Source: Bacteroidales bacterium (GTDB taxonomy: Bacteria; Bacteroidota; Bacteroidia; Bacteroidales; FEN-979). Taken from it: a DNA stretch of 64,000 nucleotides. The DNA is taken from positions 62,443 through 126,442 of the forward strand of contig DAONET010000002.1 in NCBI GenBank assembly GCA_035403225.1, in the 5' to 3' direction. Below are positions 41,228 through 53,502 of this stretch, in pieces. The translations under genes were made by a program, and so were the position numbers. Below the pieces are notes generated by a model. It was not told the DNA's origin. It saw only the letters and a list, made by a program, of their open reading frames with translations, and did no database searches. Every line of letters starts with the position of its first letter. Positions within the stretch are counted from its first letter, which is position 1.

Positions 41228-42028
41228 ATGCCAAAGCAAATCACCAGTCTCCAGAATCCCGTCATTAAAAATATCATGCTGCTGGAAGAAAAGCCGCGGG
41301 AACGGCGACAGCAGAACCTGGCCGTGGTCGAAGGATTGCGGGAGGTGAAACTGGCGATCGGTTCAGGATTTTCGATCCCGTTGATCCTCTATTGTCCGGA
41401 ATACCTGGGGCAAGCGGAGCTGGATGCCCTGCTGGCGGAAATGACCACCCCTCCCGAACTGGCGGAGATTACGCCCGATATCTTTAACCGGCTGGCATAT
41501 CGCCAAAACGCCGGTGGAATTATAGCAACGGTTGTTCCCAGACGCTTGCGTTTCGAGGATCTGCCGTCTGTCATCACTCCCTTGTTCCTAGTCCTCGAAA
41601 CAGTGGAAAAACCGGGCAACCTCGGAGCCATCCTCCGCACCGCCGACGCAGCCAACCTCGACGGGGTGATCATCTGCGATCCCCAGACCGATATCTACAA
41701 CCCCAACGCCATCCGTTCCTCCTTAGGCTGCATCTTTACCATGCCGGTGGTGACCAGTACTACGGCCGAAACCATTGCCTGGCTGCGTTCCAAAGGTATC
41801 CGTTCGTTTGGTACCGCCCTCACAGCTACCGGCTTTTACCACCTTTCCGATTACCGGCAACCGGCAGCCATTGTCATGGGGTCGGAAGCTTTCGGTCTCA
41901 GCCAAACCTGGCTTGATCAGGCTGACGAACTGGTGAAGATTCCCATGAGAGGAAAAGTCGATTCCATGAATGTCTCTGTATCCGCGGCCATCATGGTGTT
42001 CGAAGCTTTACGTCAACGAGGTTTCTGA
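41228..42028 (+). CDS. TrmH/SpoU-family RNA 2'-O-methyltransferase
   Basis: 266 aa with SpoU motifs LVLETVEKPGNLGAILRTADA and IPMRGKVDSMNVSVSAAI. Confidence 0.9.
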   Translation: MPKQITSLQNPVIKNIMLLEEKPRERRQQNLAVVEGLREVKLAIGSGFSIPLILYCPEYLGQAELDALLAEMTTPPELAEITPDIFNRLAYRQNAGGIIATVVPRRLRFEDLPSVITPLFLVLETVEKPGNLGAILRTADAANLDGVIICDPQTDIYNPNAIRSSLGCIFTMPVVTSTTAETIAWLRSKGIRSFGTALTATGFYHLSDYRQPAAIVMGSEAFGLSQTWLDQADELVKIPMRGKVDSMNVSVSAAIMVFEALRQRGF

Positions 42029-42074
42029 TCGAAATTATTTTTTAAAAAACACATCCACCCAAGCTGAAAAAGAG

Positions 42075-42106
42075 TACTTTTGTTTCGTCTTTCTACGAAA
42101 TACTAA
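42075..42106 (+). promoter_or_regulatory. Promoter/operator copy A: TACTTTTG -7 box followed by TTTCG-N8-CGAAA-TACTAA
   Basis: It is nearly identical to the element at 44275-44307 and lies immediately upstream of arsR (ATG 42110). Confidence 0.6.
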
Positions 42107-42109
42107 ATT

Positions 42110-42442
42110 ATGACAACCACCAGGAAATATTTCACGGAAAGCCAGGAAAAAATGGCCCGGTACGCGAAAGCATTATCACATCCGGTCAGAATCTTCATCC
42201 TCGATTTTCTGGCTGAAAATACGCACAAGTGCTGTTACAGCGGCGATATGGCCGAAGAGCTGCCTATCGCCCGCTCAACCTTGTCTGAACATCTGAATGA
42301 ATTGAAAAAAGCAGGGTTGATACAGGGCGAAATCAATCCACCCTACATCAAATACTGTATCAACAACGAGAATTGGGAAGAAGCAAAAACACTGTTTCGA
42401 CCCTTCTTTGAGCGAAAAGTGGTGAAAAGAGTATGCGATTAA
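42110..42442 (+). CDS. arsR: ArsR/SmtB-family metalloregulator
   Basis: 110 aa. It has the HTH region ALSHPVRIFILDFLA...MAEELPIARSTLSEHLNELKKAGLI and a vicinal Cys pair (HKCCYSGD) where the ArsR CVC site normally sits. Confidence 0.9.
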   Translation: MTTTRKYFTESQEKMARYAKALSHPVRIFILDFLAENTHKCCYSGDMAEELPIARSTLSEHLNELKKAGLIQGEINPPYIKYCINNENWEEAKTLFRPFFERKVVKRVCD

Positions 42443-42454
42443 AAAATTATATCC

Positions 42455-42691
42455 ATGGAAATTAAAATCCTGGGGCCCGGGTGCCCAAAATGTAAAACGC
42501 TGGATAAACTAACCCGTGAAGTGGTTGAACATAACGGGATTGATGCGACGATCACGAAAGTGGAAGACATCATGGAAATCATGAAGTATGGCGTCATGTC
42601 AACGCCTGCACTGGTGGTGGACGGCCAGGTCCTGATCAAGGGTCGTGTCCCTTCATCGGATGAGATCAAAAAAATATTAACATCAAAATAA
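42455..42691 (+). CDS. Small cytoplasmic thioredoxin-fold protein (redox-active disulfide protein 2 type)
   Basis: 78 aa, starting MEIKILGPGCPKCK, with a CxxC motif. Confidence 0.85.
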   Translation: MEIKILGPGCPKCKTLDKLTREVVEHNGIDATITKVEDIMEIMKYGVMSTPALVVDGQVLIKGRVPSSDEIKKILTSK

Positions 42692-42700
42692 ACCTGCTGT

Positions 42701-43132
42701 ATGAAAAAACTCATTCCGTTTATGCTCCTTCTGGCCATGTTCACAGGAAGTTATGCCTGCAACGGCCCTGCATCATCCTCTCCGGCCGGCAATGCGGCTG
42801 TTACTACCGGTAAAAAAGTGGAGGTATATTATTTTCATTTTACCCGTCGTTGCATGACTTGCCAGAATGTGGAAAATGTCTCGAAAAAAGCGGTCGAAAC
42901 CTTATATCCCGAACAGGTAAAAAAAGGTGATATCATCTTTAAAAGCGTCAACCTGGAAGAAAAAGAGGGAGAGATCCTCGGAATAAAGTACAAGATCGAA
43001 GGCCAGACCCTGATCGTGATCAGCGGGACGAATAGAGTGGACCTTACGGATAAAGGCTTTTTATATGCCAACAACAACCCCGAAAAACTCACCGCTGAAA
43101 TTAAAAAAGCGGTTGACGGTATGATGAAATGA
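42701..43132 (+). CDS. Exported CxxC lipoprotein (thioredoxin-like; possibly the family annotated ArsF-like)
   Basis: 143 aa with lipobox GSYAC and motif FTRRCMTCQN. The family name is recalled from annotations and was not verified. Confidence 0.6.
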   Translation: MKKLIPFMLLLAMFTGSYACNGPASSSPAGNAAVTTGKKVEVYYFHFTRRCMTCQNVENVSKKAVETLYPEQVKKGDIIFKSVNLEEKEGEILGIKYKIEGQTLIVISGTNRVDLTDKGFLYANNNPEKLTAEIKKAVDGMMK

Positions 43133-43151
43133 TGCGCTGATCAACTGGTAT

Positions 43152-43853
43152 ATGGAAGTACTCGAAAACATTCTCGCCAACTCCCAGTACGCGGCTGTCA
43201 CCGCGTTCATCCTTGGTTTAATGACCGCCATCAGCCCATGCCCGCTGGCGACCAATATCACGGCCATCGGTTTTATCAGCCGTGACATCGAAAACCGCCG
43301 CAGGGTCTTTCTGAAAGGGCTGGTCTATACGCTCGGAAGAGCCATCACCTATACGGGACTCGGTGTCCTGCTCTACCTCGGTGCCAGCAAAATGAAAGTC
43401 ACCAACCTCTTCCAGGGATGGGGCGAAAAACTACTGGGACCGCTGCTGATCCTGATCGGACTCCTCATGCTCGATTTCATCAAAGTCAGGTTCCCGGGGT
43501 TTTCAAACCTGACTGAAAAGATGGGAGACAAAGGCCGTCGATCATACGGGGGCACTCTTTTGCTGGGAATCATCTTCGCGATGGCTTTCTGCCCATACAG
43601 TGGAGTACTGTACTTCGTGATGCTGATCCCCATGACCATCGCAAGCGCCAGCGGGCTCTACCTGCCGGCCATCTTCGCCGTTGCTACCGGCCTGCCGGTC
43701 ATCCTTTTTGCCTGGCTGTTGGCTTACGCTATCGGAAATGTGGGGAAATTCTACGACCGCATTAAAACATTCGAGCTGTGGTTCCGCCGGCTGGTGGCTG
43801 TTTTGTTTATCGCTGTCGGGATTTATTACATTATTATTTTCTTCGTAAAATGA
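43152..43853 (+). CDS. DsbD/CcdA-like integral membrane thiol-disulfide protein (family also annotated as ArsG-like permease)
   Basis: 233 aa with about 6 TM helices. Two intramembrane Cys-Pro motifs are present (AISPCPLATN and AMAFCPYSG). Confidence 0.75.
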   Translation: MEVLENILANSQYAAVTAFILGLMTAISPCPLATNITAIGFISRDIENRRRVFLKGLVYTLGRAITYTGLGVLLYLGASKMKVTNLFQGWGEKLLGPLLILIGLLMLDFIKVRFPGFSNLTEKMGDKGRRSYGGTLLLGIIFAMAFCPYSGVLYFVMLIPMTIASASGLYLPAIFAVATGLPVILFAWLLAYAIGNVGKFYDRIKTFELWFRRLVAVLFIAVGIYYIIIFFVK

Positions 43854-44269
43854 TGAATGCATTATTCGGTAATAAAGGTTTCGAAAGCAATGGCATCCTC
43901 CACCTGGTGCCACGCGATGCCTATGAACTGTGTATGAAAGGAGCAGTGCTCATGGACGTGCGCGAAGAATACATGAACCGATATAAAATGTTTGATGTGC
44001 CCGAGGTTATTTACTGCCCCCTGAGCATCCTCGAAGAAAATTTGGAAAACCTCCCGGCCGATAAACCATTGATTTTTGCCGACGCCGCCGGCTTACACAG
44101 TAAAGAGGCCGTGCTGTTACTCATCGGGAAAGGACTTGGACAACGCATCGCCAACCTGGCCGGCGGACTCGTGGAATGGGAACACGATGGCCTGCCCCTG
44201 ATCATCGACAAAAGCGAAAAACTGACCGGCTCTTGCATGTGCCAGCTCAAACCCCGGGATAAAAAATAA
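43850..44269 (+). CDS. Rhodanese-homology domain protein lacking the catalytic Cys (Asp instead), with a C-terminal CMC
   Basis: About 139 aa from ATG 43850, which overlaps the upstream stop as ATGA. The active-site loop reads IFADAAGLHSKE where rhodaneses carry C-x5-(R/S). The tail is TGSCMCQLKPRDKK. Confidence 0.7.
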   Translation: MMNALFGNKGFESNGILHLVPRDAYELCMKGAVLMDVREEYMNRYKMFDVPEVIYCPLSILEENLENLPADKPLIFADAAGLHSKEAVLLLIGKGLGQRIANLAGGLVEWEHDGLPLIIDKSEKLTGSCMCQLKPRDKK

Positions 44270-44274
44270 TTTTT

Positions 44275-44307
44275 TACTTCGTTTTTCGGATTTCTACGAA
44301 ATACTAA
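44275..44307 (+). promoter_or_regulatory. Promoter/operator copy B: TACTTCG...TTTCG-N8-CGAAA-TACTAA
   Basis: It shares the exact 17-mer TTTCTACGAAATACTAA with copy A and lies 45 nt upstream of ATG 44352. Confidence 0.6.
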
Positions 44308-44351
44308 TAATAAAGAATGGAAAGGTCCATTTCGTTTTAAAAATTGAAAAC

Positions 44352-44726
44352 ATGTCGGAAATAATGAAACCTGGTTTTATCATGTGCGTTTGCACCGGTA
44401 AATGTCCCGGGTTTTCCAAAATGGATATCTGGGATTTCATCAACAGAGTGAGAATCGAATTGCCCGTGGAATATGGGTTTATTCACCCGCAACTATGTGA
44501 AGAAGACGGAGACCGGTTTTTATCGGATTTCCTGAAATCGCACCGGAAAGTGATCATCGGAGGTTGTGCTCCCAATATGCAATATAAACTTTTCAGGGAT
44601 GCTTTCAGGGAAGCCGGTCTTGACATAAACAAGGATCTGATCCCTATCGATGTACGCGACATGACTACCGATCAAGCCGTTGAAAAGGTCAATGCGGCCC
44701 TTGGAAAAATGGAGGAAGCAAAATGA
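44352..44726 (+). CDS. Cys-rich small alpha/beta protein (degenerate DGC-like or MvhD/FlpD-like)
   Basis: 124 aa. Motifs MCVCTGKC and VIIGGCAPN are spaced like PCSG...DGC of the downstream DGC proteins and like the GGCHxGDC region of MvhD. The resemblance was judged by eye only. Confidence 0.45.
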   Translation: MSEIMKPGFIMCVCTGKCPGFSKMDIWDFINRVRIELPVEYGFIHPQLCEEDGDRFLSDFLKSHRKVIIGGCAPNMQYKLFRDAFREAGLDINKDLIPIDVRDMTTDQAVEKVNAALGKMEEAK

Positions 44727-45016
44727 GTGAAACAACTTTCATGGGAGTCGAACGGGAAAGAATCGACTGGAAACCGGTCATCGATTACTCAAAGTGTGAT
44801 TTCTGCATGGAATGCGTAAAATTCTGTCCCCACCGGGTTTTTGAAGTCCGGGAAAACCAAGAGATCAAACTGGTTGTTAAAAACCCCTTCAACTGCGTGG
44901 TGTTCTGCAGGGCCTGCTCGAAAACCTGTGGACCCGACGCCCTGTCGTTCCCCGATAAAAATAAAACATCGCAGATGATCAGAGATATCAGGAAGGAGGC
45001 GGAAAACCATGAGTGA
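44723..45016 (+). CDS. 2x[4Fe-4S]-type ferredoxin
   Basis: 97 aa with motifs CDFCMECVKFCP and CVVFCRACSKTC. GGAGGA lies 6 nt upstream of the ATG, and the gene overlaps its upstream neighbour by 4 bp and its downstream neighbour by 8 bp. Confidence 0.8.
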   Translation: MSETTFMGVERERIDWKPVIDYSKCDFCMECVKFCPHRVFEVRENQEIKLVVKNPFNCVVFCRACSKTCGPDALSFPDKNKTSQMIRDIRKEAENHE

Positions 45017-45866
45017 AAAGTATGCGGTGCTTCCCTGCAACGGACTGGATAAATGCGCAGGGGTCATTTCAAGGGAAATCGCTTTGAGATTATGCGGTGA
45101 TGCCGGCCATGAAATCATTTGTCCGGTGTTTTCCAGGATCGCGGAATTGAAATACCGGAAAATCATCAGCGAACACCCGTTGCTGGTCATCGATGGCTGC
45201 CCTACCCGATGCGCAAGCAAACTTGCGGCAGAAAAGAATTTTAAAATTGCCGGAAAGATAACCGTTACGGAAGAAGCTAAAAAATCCGGGATTGAGCTAA
45301 GTGATACGTTGCAACTCGGGGAAAAGGAACATGCGTTGATCGGGCTCCTGTTGAATGACCTGAAAACACCCGGGAATACATCCAAACAGCCTGATGAAAG
45401 GGAAGGTGAATCGTACCATTTTGATTATGAGACTTTTCAAAAAGGGAAATTCCTTTTCAGAGTCCCCGTGAATAAGGATATCTTTTTTATCGAAAATGAT
45501 TGCTGGGCCTACGTTTCCGGGAACAGGGCCAGAATTGGTGTCACCGATTTCGTCCAGCAAAACCTGTCGGATATCTTGTTTTTCACCCCTCCTGAAATGG
45601 GCTCGGAAATTGATCAGTTCGGTGAAGCAGGAGAAATCGAATCGTCAAAGTCGGTCTTTGAAGTGATCTCTCCGGTTAGCGGAAAAGTGATAGGGGTGAA
45701 CGAAGCCCTGATCCAAAAACCGGAACTGATCAACGAAAACCCTTACGAACTGGGCTGGATAGCCGACCTGGAATTGACCGCGTTCGAAAACGATAAAGAA
45801 TTACTGATCGGTTTTGATCAGTATTTTGAAATAATGAAAAGAAAGGTGATGGATCTCAATGGATAA
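45009..45866 (+). CDS. DGC-domain (putative Zn/metal-binding) protein fused to a GcvH-like lipoyl-attachment domain
   Basis: 285 aa. The N-terminal part has LPCNGLDKCAG...VIDGCPTRCA (DGC motif). The C-terminal part has RIGVTDFVQQ...GEIESSKSVFEVISPVSGKVIGVNEAL...NENPYELGWI, which is H-protein-like with Lys214 at the lipoyl position (codon 45648-45650). Confidence 0.75.
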   Translation: MSEKYAVLPCNGLDKCAGVISREIALRLCGDAGHEIICPVFSRIAELKYRKIISEHPLLVIDGCPTRCASKLAAEKNFKIAGKITVTEEAKKSGIELSDTLQLGEKEHALIGLLLNDLKTPGNTSKQPDEREGESYHFDYETFQKGKFLFRVPVNKDIFFIENDCWAYVSGNRARIGVTDFVQQNLSDILFFTPPEMGSEIDQFGEAGEIESSKSVFEVISPVSGKVIGVNEALIQKPELINENPYELGWIADLELTAFENDKELLIGFDQYFEIMKRKVMDLNG

Positions 45867-46251
45867 AAAAGTAAAAGTGATTCCTTGCAGTGGAATAGGG
45901 AAAGTATTTGGCTTCATGGCCCGGGAAGCTGCATTGAAAACAGTTTATGAATTATGCCCGGAAAAAGCTGAAACGGTTTGTCTCGCCCGGATAGTGACCG
46001 GCGATCAGGAAGTGAAGGAAAAGATCGAAGGCAGTGATTGTATCACGGTGGATGGTTGCCCCAAAATGTGTGCCTCAAAAAATGTCACAGCCGCAGGAGG
46101 CATCGTAATAGAAGAAATCAAAGTATTAGATACCGTGAAAGAGCATAAAGGGGAAAAGTTCGGATCACCCTCGCAACTGGATGCTGATGGCGAAGTCGTA
46201 ACAGGCGAAATCGCATCGAAGATCGCTGATAGAATAAATGAAGTAAAATAA
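45859..46251 (+). CDS. DGC-domain protein
   Basis: 130 aa with motifs IPCSGIGKVFG and ITVDGCPKMCA. Confidence 0.75.
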   Translation: MDKKVKVIPCSGIGKVFGFMAREAALKTVYELCPEKAETVCLARIVTGDQEVKEKIEGSDCITVDGCPKMCASKNVTAAGGIVIEEIKVLDTVKEHKGEKFGSPSQLDADGEVVTGEIASKIADRINEVK

Positions 46252-46257
46252 GGAGGA

Positions 46258-46716
46258 ATGCTGATGTCGGAATTTAAAGTAGGCGTAATTTCTTGCAGCG
46301 GAGAGGAATGTCTCGGGGGAACCATCTCAAGACTGGCGACAAGAAAGGTGTTGGAAGAGCTGAAAATGGTTGAACCGGTTACCCTGTGTCTGCCGCTTTA
46401 CCTGGCCGGTGGGAAAGAAGAACGAAACTTTGCCAGGGTGTTCCCGGTAATATCAGTCGACGGTTGCCATCAATGCTGCGCCAAAAGAAGTACGGAAAAG
46501 TACAGCGGTCAGGTAAGCGGGGCTGTCGATGTGGCAGACATCATCGGGGAAGAGAACGCCCTGAACACGGAAATTGTCAGGAATAAGGATCTTACATCAG
46601 AACACCTCCGGATGATTGACCGGGTTGCAGAAGATATCGTAAAAAAGATCGGGAATATCAGTCCGGATGCTTATTCCGGGAAAACATTCCACGGTTGTGG
46701 ATGCAGCGAAAAGTGA
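46258..46716 (+). CDS. DGC-domain protein
   Basis: 152 aa with motifs ISCSGEECLGG, ISVDGCHQCCA and a C-terminal HGCGCSEK. AAGGAGG at 46250-46256 favours the ATG at 46264 as the true start. Confidence 0.75.
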   Translation: MLMSEFKVGVISCSGEECLGGTISRLATRKVLEELKMVEPVTLCLPLYLAGGKEERNFARVFPVISVDGCHQCCAKRSTEKYSGQVSGAVDVADIIGEENALNTEIVRNKDLTSEHLRMIDRVAEDIVKKIGNISPDAYSGKTFHGCGCSEK

Positions 46717-46751
46717 CTAATGGATCCCTCTAATAAACATTTTGGAAAACG

Positions 46752-47246
46752 ATGAACGCTTCTGATAAAAGAAAACCAATATCAGCGATCCTTAACATCA
46801 CCTTTATCGGGCTGGGCCTCGTGGCCCTGGTCTTGTTGTTCGTTTTCAAAGGCAGTCTGAATACCGTTGTTACAAAAACCATCAAAGCACAGGCCGGTGA
46901 AGAGCTTCAAAACCATGTTGCCATGTATGTTGATTCTGCGTTCAATTACCGGCAGAACGGGGAAGGCTTCCGGATAACATTCCTTGAATTTGGTGCTAAA
47001 GGTTGCAGTGCTTGCAAAATGATGGAAAAGGAGATGGAGAAAGTGAAAAACAATCATCCGGATGAAGTCAGGGTGACTTTTGTCAATGTTTTGATGCCTG
47101 CTGGTCAGGATCTGATGAAATATTACGGAATTGCCTCCATCCCGACACAGGTACTTTTGGATGATGCTGGTCACGAGGTTTTCAGGCATACTGGATATTT
47201 TTCATCAGATGATCTGGATAAAGAGTTTTTAAAAATCAACCCATAA
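46752..47246 (+). CDS. Membrane-anchored periplasmic thioredoxin
   Basis: 164 aa with an N-terminal TM helix and a Trx fold carrying FGAKGCSACKMM and the cis-Pro region SIPTQV. Confidence 0.85.
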   Translation: MNASDKRKPISAILNITFIGLGLVALVLLFVFKGSLNTVVTKTIKAQAGEELQNHVAMYVDSAFNYRQNGEGFRITFLEFGAKGCSACKMMEKEMEKVKNNHPDEVRVTFVNVLMPAGQDLMKYYGIASIPTQVLLDDAGHEVFRHTGYFSSDDLDKEFLKINP

Positions 47247-47255
47247 AAAATTCGT

Positions 47256-47615
47256 ATGAAAAATTTCCACCTGCTTTGGATTCTTACCGCATTTCTCCTT
47301 TGGTCTTGCGCTGAAAAAGATAATACCCAACCATCCGAAGAAATAAAAATTAACAGCCTGACAGCATCGGAAAACCCCGTCAAAGCCTGGGACACGGCGG
47401 TAATCACGGTAGAAGCTACCGGCGACAACCTCCAATACAGATGGGAAGCAAACCACGGTAATTTCAGGGGAGGCGGTAAACAAATCAGATATGCTGCAGG
47501 TGAATGTTGTGTTGGTCTCAACACGATCACCTGCACGGTTTCTAATAGCTCGGGTAAGGTATCCGATACCATTATGATCCGTGTTACATCCTATTTCGAT
47601 CCAAAAAACAAATAG
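47256..47615 (+). CDS. Small Ig-like lipoprotein with a vicinal Cys pair
   Basis: 119 aa with lipobox LLWSCAEK. It is beta-rich and carries the motif AAGECCVG...ITC. Confidence 0.55.
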   Translation: MKNFHLLWILTAFLLWSCAEKDNTQPSEEIKINSLTASENPVKAWDTAVITVEATGDNLQYRWEANHGNFRGGGKQIRYAAGECCVGLNTITCTVSNSSGKVSDTIMIRVTSYFDPKNK

Positions 47616-47618
47616 TAC

Positions 47619-48608
47619 ATGCTGAAATTAAACGCATTTCTGATCAGTTCATCGTTGCTGTTTTTTATTATCGCGGATAAAACCTCCGCTCAATGTTGCT
47701 CTTCGGGGAATCCTTTTATCAGCGATGCAGAGCATCCTGCCCTGCAATCACAGGTGCTGACCTCTTCTCTGACGTACCGTTATGGCCATTCCTCCCAATA
47801 CTTTTCCGGGGATTCACGATTTTCCGACCTTCCATTCAAGGAGACTTCTTATAGCAATTACGCGGATTTCCAAGTTGGCTATGGAATCACCAATTGGTTG
47901 ACTGTACAAGCCGGCATAGGCTACTTTTTCAATAAAACCCTGACCACATCCGGACTGGAACCTTATAAGGGTTTTGGATTAGGTGATGCGGAACTGTATT
48001 TGAAATTCAATGCTTATACAAATCCTGAAAAAAGATTTTCAATCTCACCTTCACTGGGTGTGAAATTCCCCATCGGTGTTTTTGATCAGGAAGCAGATCA
48101 TGTACAATTACCCATCACGGTCCAGCCATCATCGGGAAGCTATAAATACACCGGGAATGTGTTTATTTTAAAAGGCATCGGCAGAAAAATGGCTTTCGCT
48201 GCATTCCTTGCCTATGAATATTCACAACTCATTGAGTCGGACAATTTCTACTATAAGTACGGTGATCAATGGATTGGCGCCGTGTACTTCAACTTCCAGG
48301 CATGGAAACGGCTTGGGGCAGATATTCAGTTCCGGAATGAATACAGGGCCAAATCCACGCGTGAACATAACGAAATCGTAGATGCTACGGGCTACAACGT
48401 GATCTTCTTCACTCCTCAGTTGACCTGGGCTTTTAAGCACAACTGGTATCTTTCAGCGTACTCCGACATCCCCATATACAAATACTACAATGGTATCCAA
48501 ATGTCATTCGGGTATTCATTTTCAGTTCGTTTGACAAAAAAGATCGATTTTATTGCGCTGAAAGCATACCAAAAATCAAAAAATTATGACGTATTATTAC
48601 GTCAATAA
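47619..48608 (+). CDS. Outer-membrane beta-barrel protein with CC at the predicted mature N-terminus
   Basis: 329 aa. The signal peptide ends ...KTSA, and the predicted mature N-terminus is QCCSSGNPF (Cys codons 47694-47699). Aromatic and Gly-rich strands alternate. Confidence 0.6.
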   Translation: MLKLNAFLISSSLLFFIIADKTSAQCCSSGNPFISDAEHPALQSQVLTSSLTYRYGHSSQYFSGDSRFSDLPFKETSYSNYADFQVGYGITNWLTVQAGIGYFFNKTLTTSGLEPYKGFGLGDAELYLKFNAYTNPEKRFSISPSLGVKFPIGVFDQEADHVQLPITVQPSSGSYKYTGNVFILKGIGRKMAFAAFLAYEYSQLIESDNFYYKYGDQWIGAVYFNFQAWKRLGADIQFRNEYRAKSTREHNEIVDATGYNVIFFTPQLTWAFKHNWYLSAYSDIPIYKYYNGIQMSFGYSFSVRLTKKIDFIALKAYQKSKNYDVLLRQ

Positions 48609-48649
48609 AGATTATAACGTATATTTGCGTCAAATCAAATTCAAGAGAG

Positions 48650-49393
48650 ATGAAAAAATTTTTTGTTTTGATGTTGTTCCTGTCATTCCTGCCAGGCACA
48701 CTTCTCCTTTCAGCACAGACCTCCCAGGAGTTGTTGAAAGCCCAAAAGTCGGGAAAAACAGTTTTCCTGGTTGCCTACACATCGAAAGGCGCTGAACTTG
48801 ATAAGGCTGTTGCCATTGCAAAATCAGCTAATCAAAAAGTCCCTTCCGCAACGACCGTTGTGACCATGAATGCAAGCGATGCCGGCAACAAAGATCTTGT
48901 CACAAAATTCCGAATAAGTGGTGCTCCTTTACCCTTAATCCTGGTTTTGGATAAGAATGGAACAGCCGCAGGCGGGATCATTCTAAAAGAGGCCACTGCA
49001 GAGAAATTGGTAGATATGATACCATCACCAAAAACTTCTGAACTTCTGAAAGGATTGGCAGATGGAAAATCAGTATATATAGTGGTTTACAAGGAAAGCA
49101 TGACTTCGAAAAAAGAAATCATGAATAACTGTGCCACGGCCTGTTCCAAAATGAAGAATACAAGTATTACCATTCAGGTCAACGCCGATGACAAGAAGGA
49201 AACCAAACTATTACGCACCTTAAAGTATGATAATACGGCGACGCAACCTGTTACCTATGTGGTGAATTCATCGGGCCAGTTGACAGATACATATAATGGC
49301 ATGACCAATGTGACCAGCCTGATAGGTTCAGCCCAAAAAGTGATCAAAAGTTCCTGTTGCCCGGGAGGCTCAAAAACCGGTGTTTGTAAATAA
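48650..49393 (+). CDS. Periplasmic tandem thioredoxin-fold-like protein with a Cys-rich C-terminal tail
   Basis: 247 aa with a signal peptide. There are two ~100-aa repeats (KSGKTVFLVAY... and ADGKSVYIVVY...). The tail is SSCCPGGSKTGVCK (about 49349-49390). Confidence 0.55.
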   Translation: MKKFFVLMLFLSFLPGTLLLSAQTSQELLKAQKSGKTVFLVAYTSKGAELDKAVAIAKSANQKVPSATTVVTMNASDAGNKDLVTKFRISGAPLPLILVLDKNGTAAGGIILKEATAEKLVDMIPSPKTSELLKGLADGKSVYIVVYKESMTSKKEIMNNCATACSKMKNTSITIQVNADDKKETKLLRTLKYDNTATQPVTYVVNSSGQLTDTYNGMTNVTSLIGSAQKVIKSSCCPGGSKTGVCK

Positions 49394-49398
49394 TCCCT

Positions 49399-50625
49399 TT
49401 GATCATGACACTTTTTAAACTGGTTTGTATTGAACTCTGGAAACGAAAATCCCAGCTGATTACCGGGCTTCTGGCCATAACCCTTGGTATTGCAGTCATT
49501 GTAGGCATACAGAGCGTTGCTGTTGTTTCTGAACAAAACGTAGCAAAAAACCTCGATAATCTCGGGGCAAATATTCTGATTCTTCCACAGGCTGCAAGCA
49601 TAGACGATTATTACACGGCTGATATTGATGCGCCAACTTTGCCAATGGATTATGTTGAGCGGATACTGTCTTCCACCATTGCCGGTGTCGATAATATGTC
49701 ACCAAAACTAACCCGAAGAATCAAAGTAAAAGGTCAGACCGTCGTACTTACCGGGATACTTCCCAAAAGCGAAATTGCTTCCAAACCCCTTTGGCAATCC
49801 TCCGGTTTACTGGGAAAACAACTTACCACTGAATGCTCTCCCAACCAAACAGTCAATGAATCTCACGGGATGGAGGATGAAAGGTTGCAACGGAAGGCCA
49901 TCGATACCCTTTACAGTGAGAATTGCCTCGCAGGATCACAGGTTGCCAAGAAACTAAACCTTTCCGTTAACAACAAAATTACTATACTCGGAAAGTCTTT
50001 TACGGTGGCGAAGATACTTCCGGAAACAGGGACAGTGGATGATGACAGAATTTTTGCCAACCTGAAAGATGTGCAAAATCTTTTAAAGATCGAAAACCAG
50101 GTATCGGCCATTGAAATCATGGGGTGCTGTCATGCAATTTCAGAAGGATTGCTCAGCCAACTCAGAAACATTCTGCCGGATACAAGAGTGACATCAATAA
50201 ACCAGATTGTATCTACCCAAATCGAAACGAATCAGTTGATGAAAAAAATCACCCTGGTCATGCTGATCATCATCTTCTTCGTTGGAGGAATTTCTATCGG
50301 GAACTTTATCTGGGCGAATGTCAACGAACGGAAAAAGGAAATCGGAATCCTTCGAATGATCGGTGCAAACCATTGGACGATTTATAGTCTTTTCCTTTAT
50401 AAAGCCGTTTTCCTGGGTATTGTCGGGGGAATTCTCGGATATCTTTTGGGAACACTGGCAGGAGTGATTCTGGGGCCTTACTTTGCAGGAATCAATGTGC
50501 AACCCGTGGCAATCTATTTCCTTTACTCTATTTTGCTATCCGTCATCATTGCGATAGCCGGGTCTGTTTTACCTACTTGTCTTGCTGCAAGGATCGACCC
50601 CCATTTAAATTTACAAGAAGATTAA
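49399..50625 (+). CDS. FtsX/MacB-type ABC transporter permease
   Basis: 408 aa with TM1, a large periplasmic domain and three C-terminal TMs (the FtsX fold). The start is TTG 49399 or ATG 49405. Confidence 0.85.
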   Translation: MIMTLFKLVCIELWKRKSQLITGLLAITLGIAVIVGIQSVAVVSEQNVAKNLDNLGANILILPQAASIDDYYTADIDAPTLPMDYVERILSSTIAGVDNMSPKLTRRIKVKGQTVVLTGILPKSEIASKPLWQSSGLLGKQLTTECSPNQTVNESHGMEDERLQRKAIDTLYSENCLAGSQVAKKLNLSVNNKITILGKSFTVAKILPETGTVDDDRIFANLKDVQNLLKIENQVSAIEIMGCCHAISEGLLSQLRNILPDTRVTSINQIVSTQIETNQLMKKITLVMLIIIFFVGGISIGNFIWANVNERKKEIGILRMIGANHWTIYSLFLYKAVFLGIVGGILGYLLGTLAGVILGPYFAGINVQPVAIYFLYSILLSVIIAIAGSVLPTCLAARIDPHLNLQED

Positions 50626-50627
50626 TC

Positions 50628-51305
50628 ATGATGATACAGGTAGAAAAAATATTCAAGCGGTATAATCATAATAGTAAGACTATCAATGCTCTGGACGGGG
50701 TATCGTTTCAGATCAACCAAAGTGATTTTGTCACCGTGACCGGCCCTTCCGGATCTGGTAAAAGCACTTTACTACTGTCTCTTTTTGGGTTGATACGGAT
50801 AAGTTCCGGCTCCATTCAGTTTAATGATCGCCGGATTGATGATCTGCCGGATAGGGAACTTGCCCTGATCAGAAAAAAAGATGTGGGGTATGTCCTCCAG
50901 AGTTTTGCTTTGATCCCGTACCTGACAACCATCCAAAACGTAATGATCCCACTGGCATTGGGAAGGATCCGGAAAAAAGAACAGTTCGACCGTGCATCAG
51001 AGATCCTTGAATATGTGGGCCTCTCCGATCGTATGGACCATCTGCCGGGAGAACTGTCTGCAGGCCAGCAACAAAGGGTTGCCATCGCCAGGGCGATTGT
51101 CCACCATCCAAAGGTCATTCTTGCTGATGAACCAACCGGAAATCTTGATCCTTTCTTGTCGGTAGAGATATTGGAATTTCTGAAAAAAATCAATGAGGAA
51201 AATAAAATCACGGTGATGATGGTGACCCATAGCCCTGTCGCAGCACAATACGGAACCGTGAAACTTCATCTTCAGAATGGTAAAATAATGAATAATAACC
51301 GGTAA
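50628..51305 (+). CDS. ABC transporter ATP-binding protein (MacB/LolD-like)
   Basis: About 225 aa from ATG 50628. It has Walker A GPSGSGKST, the signature LSAGQQQRVAIARA and Walker B ILADEPTGNLD. Confidence 0.9.
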   Translation: MMIQVEKIFKRYNHNSKTINALDGVSFQINQSDFVTVTGPSGSGKSTLLLSLFGLIRISSGSIQFNDRRIDDLPDRELALIRKKDVGYVLQSFALIPYLTTIQNVMIPLALGRIRKKEQFDRASEILEYVGLSDRMDHLPGELSAGQQQRVAIARAIVHHPKVILADEPTGNLDPFLSVEILEFLKKINEENKITVMMVTHSPVAAQYGTVKLHLQNGKIMNNNR

Positions 51306-51307
51306 AA

Positions 51308-51643
51308 ATGGCTTACGCAAAAACAGAATTGTTCGATAAGAAATTATCCTCCGATGCATCCTTATTCAAATCGCTGGCGCATCCCGCACGATTGGCAATA
51401 TTGAAATACCTTGCTGAAACCCGGGTTTGTATTACTGGCGATATTTCAGATAAATTGCCTTTGAGCCGGACAACCATTGTCCAGCACTTGAAAGAGTTGA
51501 AAAAAGTCGGGCTAATTCAGGGACAAGTTGATGGTGCAAAAGTGAATTATTGTCTTGATAATAAAAAAGTGTGTGAGGCTTATTCCGCTATACGGGAATT
51601 CTTCGATACCATCAATGTCCCAAACAACGGGAATTGTAAATAA
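51308..51643 (+). CDS. arsR: ArsR/SmtB-family transcriptional regulator (second copy)
   Basis: 111 aa with the HTH region LAHPARLAILKYLAETRVCITGDISDKLPLSRTTIVQHLKELKKVGLI. It starts 2 bp after the ABC ATPase gene. Confidence 0.9.
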   Translation: MAYAKTELFDKKLSSDASLFKSLAHPARLAILKYLAETRVCITGDISDKLPLSRTTIVQHLKELKKVGLIQGQVDGAKVNYCLDNKKVCEAYSAIREFFDTINVPNNGNCK

Positions 51644-51657
51644 TCTTTCTGACAACC

Positions 51658-52068
51658 ATGAAAATCCTGATCATTTGTACCGGAAATTCATGCCGAAGCC
51701 AGATGGCTGAAGGTTTTTTGAAATCCCTGAATCCTTCCATGCAGGTTTTTTCTGCAGGTACCCTCCCTGAAAAACAGGTCAGTCCTTATGCCGTAGAGGT
51801 CATGAAAGAAATCGGAATAGATATTTCCCGGAACAGGCCCAAAAAGGTGGATCTGTTTCTTGACGATTCTTTTGATTATGTGATCACCGTATGCGATTCG
51901 GCGAAAGAAACCTGCCCGTTGTTCATCGGGAAAGTGAAAAACAGACGTCACATGGGTTTTGAAGATCCGGCGGATGCCCGGGGGACAAAAGAAGAAATTC
52001 TTGCCGTCTATCGCCGTGTCAGAGATCAGATCAGAGAAGAATTCAGGGCTTTTTACGATACCTTGTAA
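51658..52068 (+). CDS. arsC: Arsenate reductase, LMW-PTP (thioredoxin-coupled) type
   Basis: 136 aa with the P-loop ICTGNSCRSQMAEG and the downstream Cys pair VCDSAKETCP. Confidence 0.9.
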   Translation: MKILIICTGNSCRSQMAEGFLKSLNPSMQVFSAGTLPEKQVSPYAVEVMKEIGIDISRNRPKKVDLFLDDSFDYVITVCDSAKETCPLFIGKVKNRRHMGFEDPADARGTKEEILAVYRRVRDQIREEFRAFYDTL

Positions 52069-52084
52069 ATAATCACTTCAGATA

Positions 52085-53206
52085 ATGGTAAAAATCAGTA
52101 AAAAACCGGCTTGTGATTGCGGATGCAACGGTGATGGAGCATCTCCATCCGAAAAAAAACATCCCGGATTACAACCTGATTTCATAATTGGCTCATATCC
52201 ATCTGGCGAAAAATCCGTTCCTCTGGTTTCAACAACATGGAGCCGGACCGATCGGCTGAGCGCGTTGAAAGTCCGGTGGTCCATCGGCAGAATGCATTAT
52301 AAAGTCGATCCGGGAATTTATGCAGTCGGGAAACCCGGCGATCAATCGCTTGTTTTTGTGACCGCCAATTATAAGTTGAGTTTTGATCACCTCAGAAGAG
52401 GGCTCGACGGACTCGACGCCTGGATCCTGGTCCTTGACACGAAAGGGATTAATGTTTGGTGCGCTGCCGGGAAAGGGACATTCGGCACCAAAGAACTGGT
52501 GCGCCGCATCCGGATCCATCACCTGGCCGACCTGGTCACTCACCGGAGAATCATCCTGCCGCAACTGAGCGCTACGGGAGTTGCCGCTCATGAAGTGAAA
52601 AAAATGACGGGTTTTTCGGTTACCTATGGCCCGGTGAGAGCCGTCGACATCAAGGCGTTCCTTGATTCCGGCCTGAAAGCCGGCGAAAGAATGAGAACCG
52701 TTACTTTTTCGTTGGCAGACCGCCTGAAACTGATCCCCGTCGATATCTTTTACGCAAAATATTACCTCCTCCTTATCCCGGCCCTGTTTTTCCTCCTTTC
52801 GGGTCTCAACCCCCATGGGTATTCCATCGAAATGGCCGTTGAAACCGGGAGCAGATCCATACTCAATTTATTTGCCGGTTACCTTTCCGGATGCGCTCTT
52901 ACCCCCATCCTCCTGCCCTGGATCCCGTTCAGAAGGTTTTCGCTGAAAGGATTACTGGTCGGCTGGTTAGTCGCACTCTTCCTGATGGGGGCAGGCACCT
53001 TGGGAAATAACGCGGTCGAGATCGGTTCCTGGTTCCTGATCATGGGAGGACTATCTTCTTTCATGGCCATGAATTTTACTGGTTCGTCTACCTTCACATC
53101 CCTATCCGGAGTTCAAAAAGAAATGAAAACGGCCATTCCTGTTCAGATTACGATGACGGCTCTGGGACTGGCAGGATGGATATTCACCAGATTTATTATC
53201 CTATGA
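52085..53206 (+). CDS. hgcA: Mercury-methylation corrinoid protein HgcA
   Basis: 373 aa. It has the cap-helix signature GINVWCAAGKGTFG (Cys126 codon 52460-52462), a CFeSP-like corrinoid-binding N-domain, a C-terminal multi-helix membrane domain and an N-terminal CDCGC cluster. Confidence 0.9.
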   Translation: MVKISKKPACDCGCNGDGASPSEKKHPGLQPDFIIGSYPSGEKSVPLVSTTWSRTDRLSALKVRWSIGRMHYKVDPGIYAVGKPGDQSLVFVTANYKLSFDHLRRGLDGLDAWILVLDTKGINVWCAAGKGTFGTKELVRRIRIHHLADLVTHRRIILPQLSATGVAAHEVKKMTGFSVTYGPVRAVDIKAFLDSGLKAGERMRTVTFSLADRLKLIPVDIFYAKYYLLLIPALFFLLSGLNPHGYSIEMAVETGSRSILNLFAGYLSGCALTPILLPWIPFRRFSLKGLLVGWLVALFLMGAGTLGNNAVEIGSWFLIMGGLSSFMAMNFTGSSTFTSLSGVQKEMKTAIPVQITMTALGLAGWIFTRFIIL

Positions 53207-53502
53207 AAGAATTCATTTATTTACCCGACGTAGTCACCCTGGAACTTGACAGGGAGAAATGCAACGGTTGCCGGATGTGCCTGACGGTATGTCCCCACGC
53301 TGTATTTGAAATAAAAGATAAGAAGGCGGTGATCCGTCATAAAGATCAATGTATGGAATGCGGGGCATGTGCCAAAAACTGCCCGCAGGAGGCCATTACC
53401 GTCAGATCCGGTGTAGGGTGTGCAGCCGGGATCCTCAATGGAATACTCCGCGGTACTGAACCGACATGCGATTGCAGTAAGGATAGCGGAAGTTGTTGTT
53501 GA
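53203..53502 (+). CDS. hgcB: Mercury-methylation ferredoxin HgcB
   Basis: 99 aa from an ATG overlapping the hgcA stop as ATGA. It has two CxxCxxCxxxCP motifs (CNGCRMCLTVCP and CMECGACAKNCP) and the C-terminal tail CDCSKDSGSCC. Confidence 0.9.
   Translation: MKEFIYLPDVVTLELDREKCNGCRMCLTVCPHAVFEIKDKKAVIRHKDQCMECGACAKNCPQEAITVRSGVGCAAGILNGILRGTEPTCDCSKDSGSCC

Follow-up and report, generated by a model that had tools for sequence, protein, structure and literature searches.

A lipoyl-carrier-based five-gene module in the arsenic-resistance islands of anaerobic bacteria, probably a dedicated electron or thiol relay

The window analyzed here is a 64,000-nucleotide stretch of contig DAONET010000002.1 from a Bacteroidales bacterium, and at positions 44352-46716 it carries five co-directional open reading frames (ORFs) on the forward strand, called g1 to g5 below. 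Their products include an H-protein-type lipoyl carrier, Fe-S proteins and DGC-domain proteins, and the module they constitute appears to be a conserved lipoyl-carrier-based multi-protein redox system for which no published description was found; it is probably a dedicated electron or thiol relay. The module belongs to the arsenic-resistance (ars) islands of up to ~200 anaerobic species. The reading favored here, plausible but tentative and somewhat short of probable, is that g1-g5 would form a cytoplasmic lipoate-dependent Fe-S/thiol redox complex that is controlled by ArsR and serves as an accessory of arsenic islands in anaerobes. The five genes are:

g1, 44352-44726, + strand, 124 amino acids (aa): stand-alone HdrA N-terminal-domain-like protein, a predicted [4Fe-4S] electron-transfer subunit
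g2, 44723-45016, + strand, 97 aa: 2x[4Fe-4S] ferredoxin with the motifs CxxCxxCxxxCP and CxxxCxxCxxxCG
g3, 45009-45866, + strand, 285 aa: DGC domain (~6-93), variable linker (~95-150) and H-protein domain (161-277)
g4, 45859-46251, + strand, 130 aa: DGC protein, 51.7 bits against PF08859
g5, 46258-46716, + strand, 152 aa: DGC protein, 57.5 bits against PF08859

These genes are one tightly coupled unit. The ATG of g2 shares the letters ATGA with the g1 stop codon TGA, the starts of g3 and g4 lie 8 nt ahead of the stops of g2 and g3, respectively, and GGAGGA precedes g5 in the 6-nt gap that follows g4. A preliminary description of this DNA, made from the sequence alone, had reported five tightly packed genes, and all of the ORFs and their junctions (g1/g2 -4, g2/g3 -8, g3/g4 -8 and g4/g5 +6 bp) were reproduced, as were the motifs it quoted (LPCNG...VIDGCPTRCA, IPCSG...TVDGCPKMCA, ISCSG...SVDGCHQCCA and ESSKSV). 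Since neighboring frames overlap or abut, and since gene order and spacing are kept across loci as described next, co-translation and a stoichiometric complex are implied, and we infer that the g1-g5 proteins form a single complex.

The distribution of the block was followed in a scan of one genome per species (185,579 species genomes), in which the g3 fusion matched up to 202. The best 80 of these loci were compared, and the presence of the five genes was judged by a tblastn map of the window proteins onto the loci; the ORF caller sometimes picked antisense ORFs over g2, g4, and g5, and ORF clusters were not used for this purpose. Neighboring ORFs were clustered and recurrent families annotated. 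The order g1-g2-g3-g4-g5 and its spacing are kept in nearly all of the 80, which come from Bacteroidales and other Bacteroidota, Clostridia, Desulfosporosinus, Desulfotomaculia, and Syntrophomonas; the same block is present in three further loci, including an Armatimonadota contig and Candidatus Formimonas. Two loci, L075 (labeled Limisphaerales) and L079 (an unclassified bacterium), show the permutation g4-g5-g1-g2-g3, and in a few cases a short contig breaks off inside the block. The DGC-GcvH fusion, whose rarity had been raised as a possibility, is not rare: the 120 matches listed are all full length, with both domains and 66-89% identity. PLSDB yielded no full-length fusion, only ordinary gcvH genes. 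Carriers are anaerobes of paddy soil, sediment, digester, and groundwater. One locus (L034, SACF01000058.1) bears the label of an alphaproteobacterial metagenome-assembled genome; its gene content and 77-88% identity to a Bacteroidota ars island suggest that the contig was mis-binned or recently transferred. As the preliminary description had supposed, no system of this composition was encountered in the full-text literature, which likewise turned up no description of the function of PF08859 and neither expression nor phenotype results for the module, and module genes are unmentioned in the publications on the arsenic methylator Paraclostridium EML, Fusibacter 3D3, and P. mercurii ND132.

The second half of g3 carries the lipoyl signature. 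Residues 161-277 match GCV_H (PF01597) with 101.5 bits, and Foldseek matches the C-terminal half of the protein to H-proteins (E 2.5e-5). Lys214, encoded at nt 45648-45650, falls in alignment on the lipoyl-bearing lysine of the VES(V/T)K motif in the H-proteins of Thermus thermophilus, Mycobacterium tuberculosis, and pea (1onl, 3ift, 1dxm); all of 18 orthologues have it, and its conservation across 80 is at least 95%. The claim of a DGC-GcvH fusion with a lysine at the lipoyl position is thereby upheld for both domains and for the residue itself, and Lys214 is predicted to be lipoylated. Indirect support for a truly lipoylated, redox-cycling H-domain comes from the larger operons of Clostridia and other phyla outside Bacteroidota, which add genes for dihydrolipoyl dehydrogenase (Lpd) and lipoate-protein ligase (LplA). 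The H-domain scores below the NCBIfam cut-offs for gcvH (94.5 against 115.85 for TIGR00527 and 105.9 against 117 for NF002270), and its single cysteine, C165, is conserved in only 66% of orthologues. GcvT and GcvP were not found among the annotated genes of the window, the annotated recurrent neighbor families of the 80 loci or the called genes of the three further loci, with single-locus ORFs not scanned; a canonical role in glycine cleavage was rejected on this result and on the sub-threshold gcvH scores. Membership in the LbpA family was also rejected, since g3 lacks the signature cysteines and hdrBC are missing from the annotated neighbor families. Databases annotate the fusion as 'glycine cleavage system protein H' or 'putative zinc-binding protein'.

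DGC domains had been claimed for three of the proteins, and g3 (62.3 bits), g4, and g5 all exceed the Pfam gathering threshold of PF08859 (27 bits). Each has a set of four cysteines that includes the central DGC motif followed by xxxC (C10/C38/C64/C68 in g3, C10/C41/C67/C71 in g4, and C13/C44/C70/C74 in g5), and these positions are 99-100% conserved among 75-80 orthologues. Cys61 is additionally conserved in g4, and a C-terminal GCGC tail occurs in ~60% of g5 orthologues. The three domains are related to one another, with hhalign probabilities of 96-99% (g4 against the g3 N-terminus 98%, against g5 99%). In the two permuted loci (L075, 6424-7612; L079, 8147-9302) the second cysteine of g4 is gone, C41 being replaced by Ala in a 30-sequence DGC alignment, and g5 is longer, at 241-267 aa. 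A DGC hidden Markov model built from 30 sequences found no relative among PDB sequences, and Foldseek returned nothing significant for the DGC half of the g3 model. That AlphaFold2 (AF2) model is poor, with a predicted local distance difference test score (pLDDT) of 54 (~63-87 in the DGC half, <50 in the H-domain half).

The first gene had been taken for a fourth, degenerate DGC protein on account of its MCVCTGKC...IIGGCAPN spacing, and here the profile tests were negative: g1 has no Pfam family and no PF08859 match even at E<=10, and its hhalign probability against the g3 N-terminus, g4, and g5 is 0.2-0.4%. The degenerate-DGC assignment was rejected in favor of homology to the N-terminal domain of HdrA. 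The protein weakly matches positions 7-95 of the NCBIfam HdrA model, a phmmer search of PDB aligned it with residues 10-93 of the HdrA chain 7bkb_A (E 0.0025), and C12, C14, C49, and C72, four of the five invariant cysteines (the fifth is C18), fall on HdrA cysteines of that chain. The AF2 model of g1, built from an input alignment of 27 sequences, reaches a pLDDT of 85, and its top seven Foldseek matches in PDB are all HdrA chains (E 7e-5 to 1e-3). It has a beta-alpha topology with cysteines after strands 1, 2, and 3; the same arrangement appears in the DGC part of the g3 model and is probably the source of the spacing originally noted. By these alignments g1 is a stand-alone HdrA-N-type protein, homologous to a [4Fe-4S]-binding domain, and it presumably binds such a cluster.

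Compared with the HdrA N-terminal domain (PDB 5odc, 7bkb, 8rvu), g1 aligns with residues ~5-93 with the cysteine ligands kept, and its model superposes best on HdrA chains. It differs in standing alone at 124 aa, without the FAD-binding thioredoxin-reductase-like domain or the ferredoxin domains in the same polypeptide, in belonging to a narrow family and in its additional invariant cysteine; in the block loci, the flavin and ferredoxin modules are either encoded as individual proteins (Lpd, g2) or missing. When 1.84 billion representative proteins were searched exhaustively with a profile, the family comprised only 129 clusters at 50% identity, of which 127 are short proteins, mostly 100-135 aa or fragments; the two long members (P0359 and P0362) are HdrA-like and have the domain at the N-terminus. 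Database names for g1 are 'hypothetical' or 'HdrA-like polyferredoxin'. It is the most conserved subunit of the module, with 68-94% identity across phyla, as is typical of a core subunit. The second gene, described at the outset as a 97-aa 2x[4Fe-4S] ferredoxin, is indeed a dicluster protein: g2 is above threshold for Fer4, Fer4_10, Fer4_7, and Fer4_9, and all eight of its cysteines are 100% conserved in 80 sequences.

The genes that accompany the block were counted on loci of at least 12 kb, comprising 28 from Bacteroidota and 37 from other phyla:

Lpd directly upstream: Bacteroidota 1/28, other phyla 34/37
LplA downstream: Bacteroidota 0/28, other phyla 15/37
ArsR-family regulator near the block: Bacteroidota 26/28, other phyla 32/37
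ArsE, ArsF, and ArsG: Bacteroidota 26, 26, and 25 of 28, other phyla 16, 0, and 12 of 37
Rhodanese-like protein: Bacteroidota 19/28, other phyla 0/37
ArsP: Bacteroidota 4/28, other phyla 22/37
Acr3, ArsC or ArsM within 10 kb: Bacteroidota 20/28, other phyla 17/37
Any non-regulator ars-type gene: Bacteroidota 27/28, other phyla 32/37
hgcAB within 10 kb: Bacteroidota 9/28, other phyla 0/37

The oxidoreductase encoded upstream of the block outside Bacteroidota passes the dihydrolipoyl dehydrogenase equivalog TIGR01350 (524 against 408.8 bits); MerA was considered for this gene and rejected, its score being 357.7 against a cut-off of 454.45. The ligase encoded downstream scores 436 bits with the lipoate-protein ligase equivalog TIGR00545, above its cut-off of 280. 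ArsA and ArsD also occur among the neighbors, and partners outside Bacteroidota further include a split or whole ArsP permease, a pair of thioredoxin (Trx) and DsbD_2 (ArsG-like) proteins, a sigma factor with DUF2703, and a cysteine desulfurase. An extra DGC protein beside a second small ferredoxin recurs in Firmicutes loci. At least seven loci of Firmicutes and Bacteroidota (L082, 13954-14277; L013, L020, and L027 with family 43; L037, L042, and L055 with family 53) encode a small AhpD/CMD-like CxxC protein just past the block. Many of the adjacent ArsR proteins carry the As(III) triad CVCxLC (KDLCVCELC in L067, KEMCVCELC in Fusibacter L071), and the Bacteroidota type has a CC pair at the triad position. 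In Fusibacter sp. 3D3 (L071, NZ_BDHH01000002.1) the order is ArsR-Lpd-g1-g2-g3-g4-g5, followed by a small Cys-tailed protein and Trx-ArsG. In two Desulfosporosinus loci (L058 and L065) a radical SAM/SPASM protein, LysR, LPG_synthase_TM, a GT2 glycosyltransferase, and DUF2064 lie 1-7 kb downstream; this set may be a separate arsenic- or lipid-related cluster.

A mechanism can be proposed under the favored reading of a lipoate-dependent Fe-S/thiol relay. LplA, encoded beside the block in many genomes, would lipoylate the g3 H-domain on Lys214. The lipoyl disulfide would then be reduced to the dithiol by NADH via the Lpd encoded upstream in most non-Bacteroidota, and/or by low-potential electrons at the ferredoxin level via g2, with its two [4Fe-4S] clusters, and g1, with an HdrA-N-type [4Fe-4S] cluster. 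The swinging dihydrolipoyl arm would service the four-Cys centers of the three DGC domains, and these would pass reducing equivalents, or thiol-bound As(III)/organoarsenical, to ArsE, Trx, AhpD-like proteins or ArsG/ArsF, thereby reaching thioredoxin-coupled ArsC, efflux, and periplasmic steps (ArsF, permeases). In most loci the block has thiol partners of this kind (ArsE, Trx, ArsG or ArsP) beside it. By analogy, Lpd, g1, and g2 resemble a split HdrA, corresponding to its flavoprotein, N-terminal domain, and ferredoxin domain. What metal the DGC domains contain, which way electrons flow, and what finally accepts them are likewise inferred.

Several points weigh against this reading. Bacteroidota loci, the window included, are without an adjacent Lpd (with the single exception counted above) or LplA, so that lipoylation and the electron source are least certain there. 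The ArsR-family, ArsE, ArsG, and ArsP proteins are not all strictly arsenic-specific. The DGC domains are without a detectable PDB relative by sequence profile or fold, and their ligand could be Zn, Fe-S, As or a redox disulfide, while the poor g3 model yields no domain-domain geometry. Lastly, three conserved DGC paralogues and two Fe-S proteins look over-engineered for reductant supply alone, which hints at real substrate chemistry.

Such chemistry would be at home in an arsenical-transforming enzyme, an unlikely but specific alternative in which g1-g5 and Lpd would constitute a new lipoate/Fe-S-dependent arsenic enzyme with the DGC centers as catalytic, metalloid-binding sites, the lipoyl arm as two-electron shuttle and Lpd/NADH or ferredoxin as donor. 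It might possibly act as a cytoplasmic NADH/ferredoxin-linked reductase that brings arsenate, or methyl- and aromatic arsenicals in the pentavalent form, to the trivalent state, or it might carry out C-As/As-S chemistry. Three DGC paralogues combined with a swinging arm and an Fe-S chain do resemble the sHdr-LbpA, 2-oxoacid, and glycine systems, the trio of Lpd, g1, and g2 would mimic a split HdrA, and ArsC is absent from many block loci, being found in 13/28 Bacteroidota and 7/37 others. The module is also present in Fusibacter sp. 3D3, which is reported to grow with arsenate without ArrAB by a mechanism described as unknown (PMC9751042); this link, however, is co-occurrence in one genome only. 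Furthermore, DGC has no catalytic precedent, no substrate-binding domain is recognizable, and a relay accounts just as well for the link with ArsEFG, ArsP, and Trx. If the enzyme reading were true, its split-HdrA-like architecture could be energy-coupled, and it would explain ArrAB-independent growth on arsenate in carriers such as Fusibacter sp. 3D3.

The same cysteines and neighbors bear on a binding rather than a redox role. Here the g3 dithiol and the DGC cysteines would bind As(III) or trivalent organoarsenicals (methylarsenite, aromatic), as a chaperone or sink that acts as a decoy protecting the lipoyl enzymes of the cell or hands its cargo to Acr3, ArsP, ArsG or ArsM, as ArsD does to ArsA; Lpd, g1, and g2 would serve only to keep the dithiol reduced. 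Arsenite and organoarsenicals classically attack reduced lipoamide, which they bind with high affinity, each DGC domain has three to four invariant cysteines in the manner of the As(III) sites of ArsR, ArsD, and ArsM (three being kept in the Limisphaerales g4), the block almost always adjoins arsenical permeases (ArsG, ArsP, Acr3), and the rhodanese-like neighbor, although it lacks a catalytic Cys, keeps a C-terminal CxC tail. A stoichiometric sink would nonetheless be costly, two dedicated and extremely conserved Fe-S proteins would be superfluous for binding, and ArsD-type chaperones function without redox partners, leaving this explanation somewhat unlikely.

A further question is whether the role is arsenic-specific at all. 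The module might instead provide general thiol, sulfur or selenium redox homeostasis and merely travel with ars islands, acting as an anaerobic substitute for thioredoxin reductase or glutathione or as a persulfide or selenide carrier. Among the neighbors are cysteine desulfurase / SclA-like proteins (7/37), DUF3343, DUF2703 / 'DF family (seleno)protein', rhodanese-like, and AhpD-like proteins, families that include members with redox-active Cys or Sec and lack specificity for arsenic, and ArsR/SmtB regulators sense other metals and persulfides too. Against this stand the frequency of Acr3, ArsC or ArsM within 10 kb (20/28 and 17/37, with ArsA and ArsD besides), the As(III)-specific CVCxLC triad in many adjacent ArsRs, and a distribution, up to 202 of 185,579 species genomes, that is too sporadic for housekeeping; a general thiol role is decidedly unlikely.

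In the window itself, the module lies within a longer co-directional string whose other members are as follows:

ArsR-family regulator, 42110-42442, + strand: HTH_5 and HTH_20 matches, a CC pair at the helix 3 metal-site position; heads the co-directional string
ArsE, 42455-42691, + strand: MTH895-type thioredoxin-like protein, NCBIfam TIGR00412 123.8 bits, above cut-off
ArsF, 42701-43132, + strand: 143 aa with a lipoprotein-type signal, MKKLIPFMLLLAMFTGSYAC; NF040494 105.8 bits, above cut-off
ArsG, 43152-43853, + strand: DsbD_2-family membrane protein, NF040495 306.6 bits, above cut-off
Rhodanese-homology protein, 43850-44269, + strand: PF00581 29.8 bits, directly upstream of g1
Membrane-anchored thioredoxin-family protein, 46752-47246, + strand: Thioredoxin and Thioredoxin_2 matches, directly downstream of g5
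Second ArsR, 51308-51643, + strand
ArsC of the LMW-PTP type, 51658-52068, + strand
HgcA, 52085-53206, + strand: 434.6 bits against an NCBIfam cut-off of 275
HgcB, 53176-53502, + strand: 128.5 bits against an NCBIfam cut-off of 99
Acr3, 53524-54582, + strand

Orthologues of the first ArsR stand upstream of the block in 26 of the 28 long Bacteroidota loci. The ArsE/ArsF/ArsG trio was named for nitroaromatic arsenical detoxification, and in the window it looks like a transmembrane thiol relay of the CcdA/DsbD type; several Bacteroidota loci have two or three tandem copies of ArsF. The start of the rhodanese-like gene overlaps the ArsG stop (ATGA). Its catalytic loop reads ADAAGLHS, without Cys, and the C-terminal GSCMCQLKPR (SCMC) is conserved in orthologues. 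The product may act as a non-catalytic adaptor for thiols or As(III). Downstream of the block, the thioredoxin-family protein is encountered again in loci of Bacteroidota, Armatimonadota, and Firmicutes. The interval from the module to the second ArsR is taken up, at 47256-51305 (+ strand), by a conserved set without recognized function that encodes a 119-aa lipoprotein-like and a 329-aa probable outer-membrane protein, both without a Pfam family, a 247-aa secreted thioredoxin-like protein with the C-terminal end CCPGGSKTGVCK, and a MacB-type FtsX/ABC pair; this set recurs in many Bacteroidota ars islands (e.g., L003, L004, L007, L009, L015, L021, and L031). The region at ~42000-52000 has a G+C content of 0.42-0.47, against 0.49-0.53 in the flanks, and the GC skew turns positive at 44-48 kb, consistent with horizontal acquisition of the ars/hgc island. 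The flanks of the island are ordinary (SpoU methylase, Rrf2 regulator, NrfA cytochrome c552, RND efflux pump). A promoter and terminator scan of 41-55 kb gave counts near the shuffled expectation, with a promoter model ill-suited to Bacteroidota.

The presence of hgcAB in this string, to which the preliminary description had attached its functional proposal, is not in doubt: HgcA and HgcB both pass their equivalog cut-offs and are encoded in the same direction as the module. They sit between arsC and acr3, behind an ArsR-family gene, and thus inside the ars island and outside the module, with hgcA 5.4 kb downstream of g5 and eight genes intervening. Many related loci have two genes ahead of hgcA that are missing from the window, one for a small membrane protein rich in Cys and the other a further ArsG-like gene. 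The proposal was that the block could form an electron, thiol or metal relay feeding the HgcAB corrinoid system of mercury methylation. The shared string, seen in the window and in nine Bacteroidota loci, is compatible with this, as are the best NCBIfam matches of g2, which are to the ferredoxin part of HgcAB-like and HgcB models although far under their cut-offs (36.9 against 285 and 32.9 against 99). The co-occurrence test speaks otherwise, since no hgcAB lies within 10 kb in 19/28 Bacteroidota and 37/37 other long loci while ars-type genes surround the block almost everywhere, and on this basis the linkage was rejected. Moreover, the genes between the block and hgcA in the window are unrelated and include a second ArsR, and HgcA is already served by its own ferredoxin, HgcB. 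The flanking of hgcAB by ars genes is a published, independent pattern (PMC7438021), and the block would be found near hgcAB in the window because both are arsenic-island cargo. A link to mercury methylation is therefore highly improbable. Of the hand-off idea as a whole, a redox/thiol or metalloid role is retained as the most reasonable class, and the part that had it feeding the corrinoid system finds no support.

Among known systems, sHdr-LbpA appears to be the closest architectural precedent, and the mycobacterial Lpd-DlaT-AhpD-AhpC chain the closest working one. The former combines an Hdr-like complex with GcvH-like lipoate-binding proteins, dedicated lipoate ligases, and two strictly conserved LbpA cysteines (PMC6067878). 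Both it and the module would employ a GcvH-like lipoyl carrier outside glycine cleavage, and in both the carrier gene is accompanied by genes for Fe-S proteins related to Hdr, for a lipoate ligase dedicated to the system, and for rhodanese or thiol carriers; the lipoyl arm of sHdr-LbpA is proposed to move back and forth from an Fe-S enzyme to a dehydrogenase. Unlike sHdr-LbpA, the module has no HdrB/HdrC or full HdrA flavoprotein, only the stand-alone HdrA-N homologue, and no CCG-domain protein (HdrB/HdrC) was found among the annotated neighbor families of the block loci. In addition, g3 lacks the two LbpA cysteines and is fused to DGC instead, the ligase is a canonical LplA and not sLpl(AB)/LipS, and the setting is one of strict anaerobes and arsenic resistance rather than of sulfur oxidation. 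With the GcvH/Lpd system the module shares an H-protein fold (27-40% identity to solved H-proteins), the lipoyl-lysine motif, and genuine Lpd and LplA partners, yet g3 was found without GcvT/GcvP nearby, falls below the gcvH equivalog cut-offs, is DGC-fused, and resides in ArsR-headed operons.

In M. tuberculosis, the lipoyl protein of the Lpd-DlaT-AhpD-AhpC chain reportedly reduces the disulfide of a thioredoxin-like protein. This stress-defense path from NADH to Lpd to protein-bound lipoamide to a thioredoxin-like CxxC protein could be mirrored by the module, whose block adjoins Trx-like genes in most loci, AhpD/CMD-like genes in at least seven, and Lpd in only 1 of 28 long loci within Bacteroidota. 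The mycobacterial carrier, however, is a pyruvate dehydrogenase E2 in double duty whereas g3 would be a dedicated H-type carrier, there is no Fe-S or DGC counterpart, and the stressor is peroxide, as opposed to presumably arsenic for the module. Some ars operons encode their own thioredoxin reductase and thioredoxin (ArsT/ArsX); these, like ArsEFG, the most constant neighbors of the block in Bacteroidota, provide island-encoded thiol reducing power or relay for arsenic detoxification, but the protein families of the module (lipoyl carrier, Fe-S, DGC) are wholly different. The GcvH-L/SirTM/LplA2 operon of Streptococcus and Staphylococcus (PMC4518038), which belongs to a stress response, likewise pairs a specialized second H-like lipoyl protein with a separate ligase. 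The module differs in having no sirtuin/macrodomain, that operon has no Fe-S/DGC partners, and organisms and stress are different.

Current database names for the fusion and for g1 mislead metabolic reconstructions. The module offers a first testable functional context for DGC (PF08859) and for a stand-alone HdrA-N-like Fe-S protein without a Pfam model. Its carriers control arsenic speciation under anoxia, and Bacteroidales carriers also hold hgcAB; to our knowledge, anaerobic arsenic activities such as the reduction of methylated As(V) and ArrAB-independent arsenate-dependent growth are still without genes. The jobs of lipoate known to us are very few: it serves the 2-oxoacid dehydrogenases and glycine cleavage, and sHdr sulfur oxidation has recently joined them. 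A lipoyl carrier dedicated to arsenic islands and equipped with an Lpd and LplA there would, if true, extend this list. Given that reduced lipoamide is the textbook target of arsenite, bacteria may here have made the target of the poison part of their defense.

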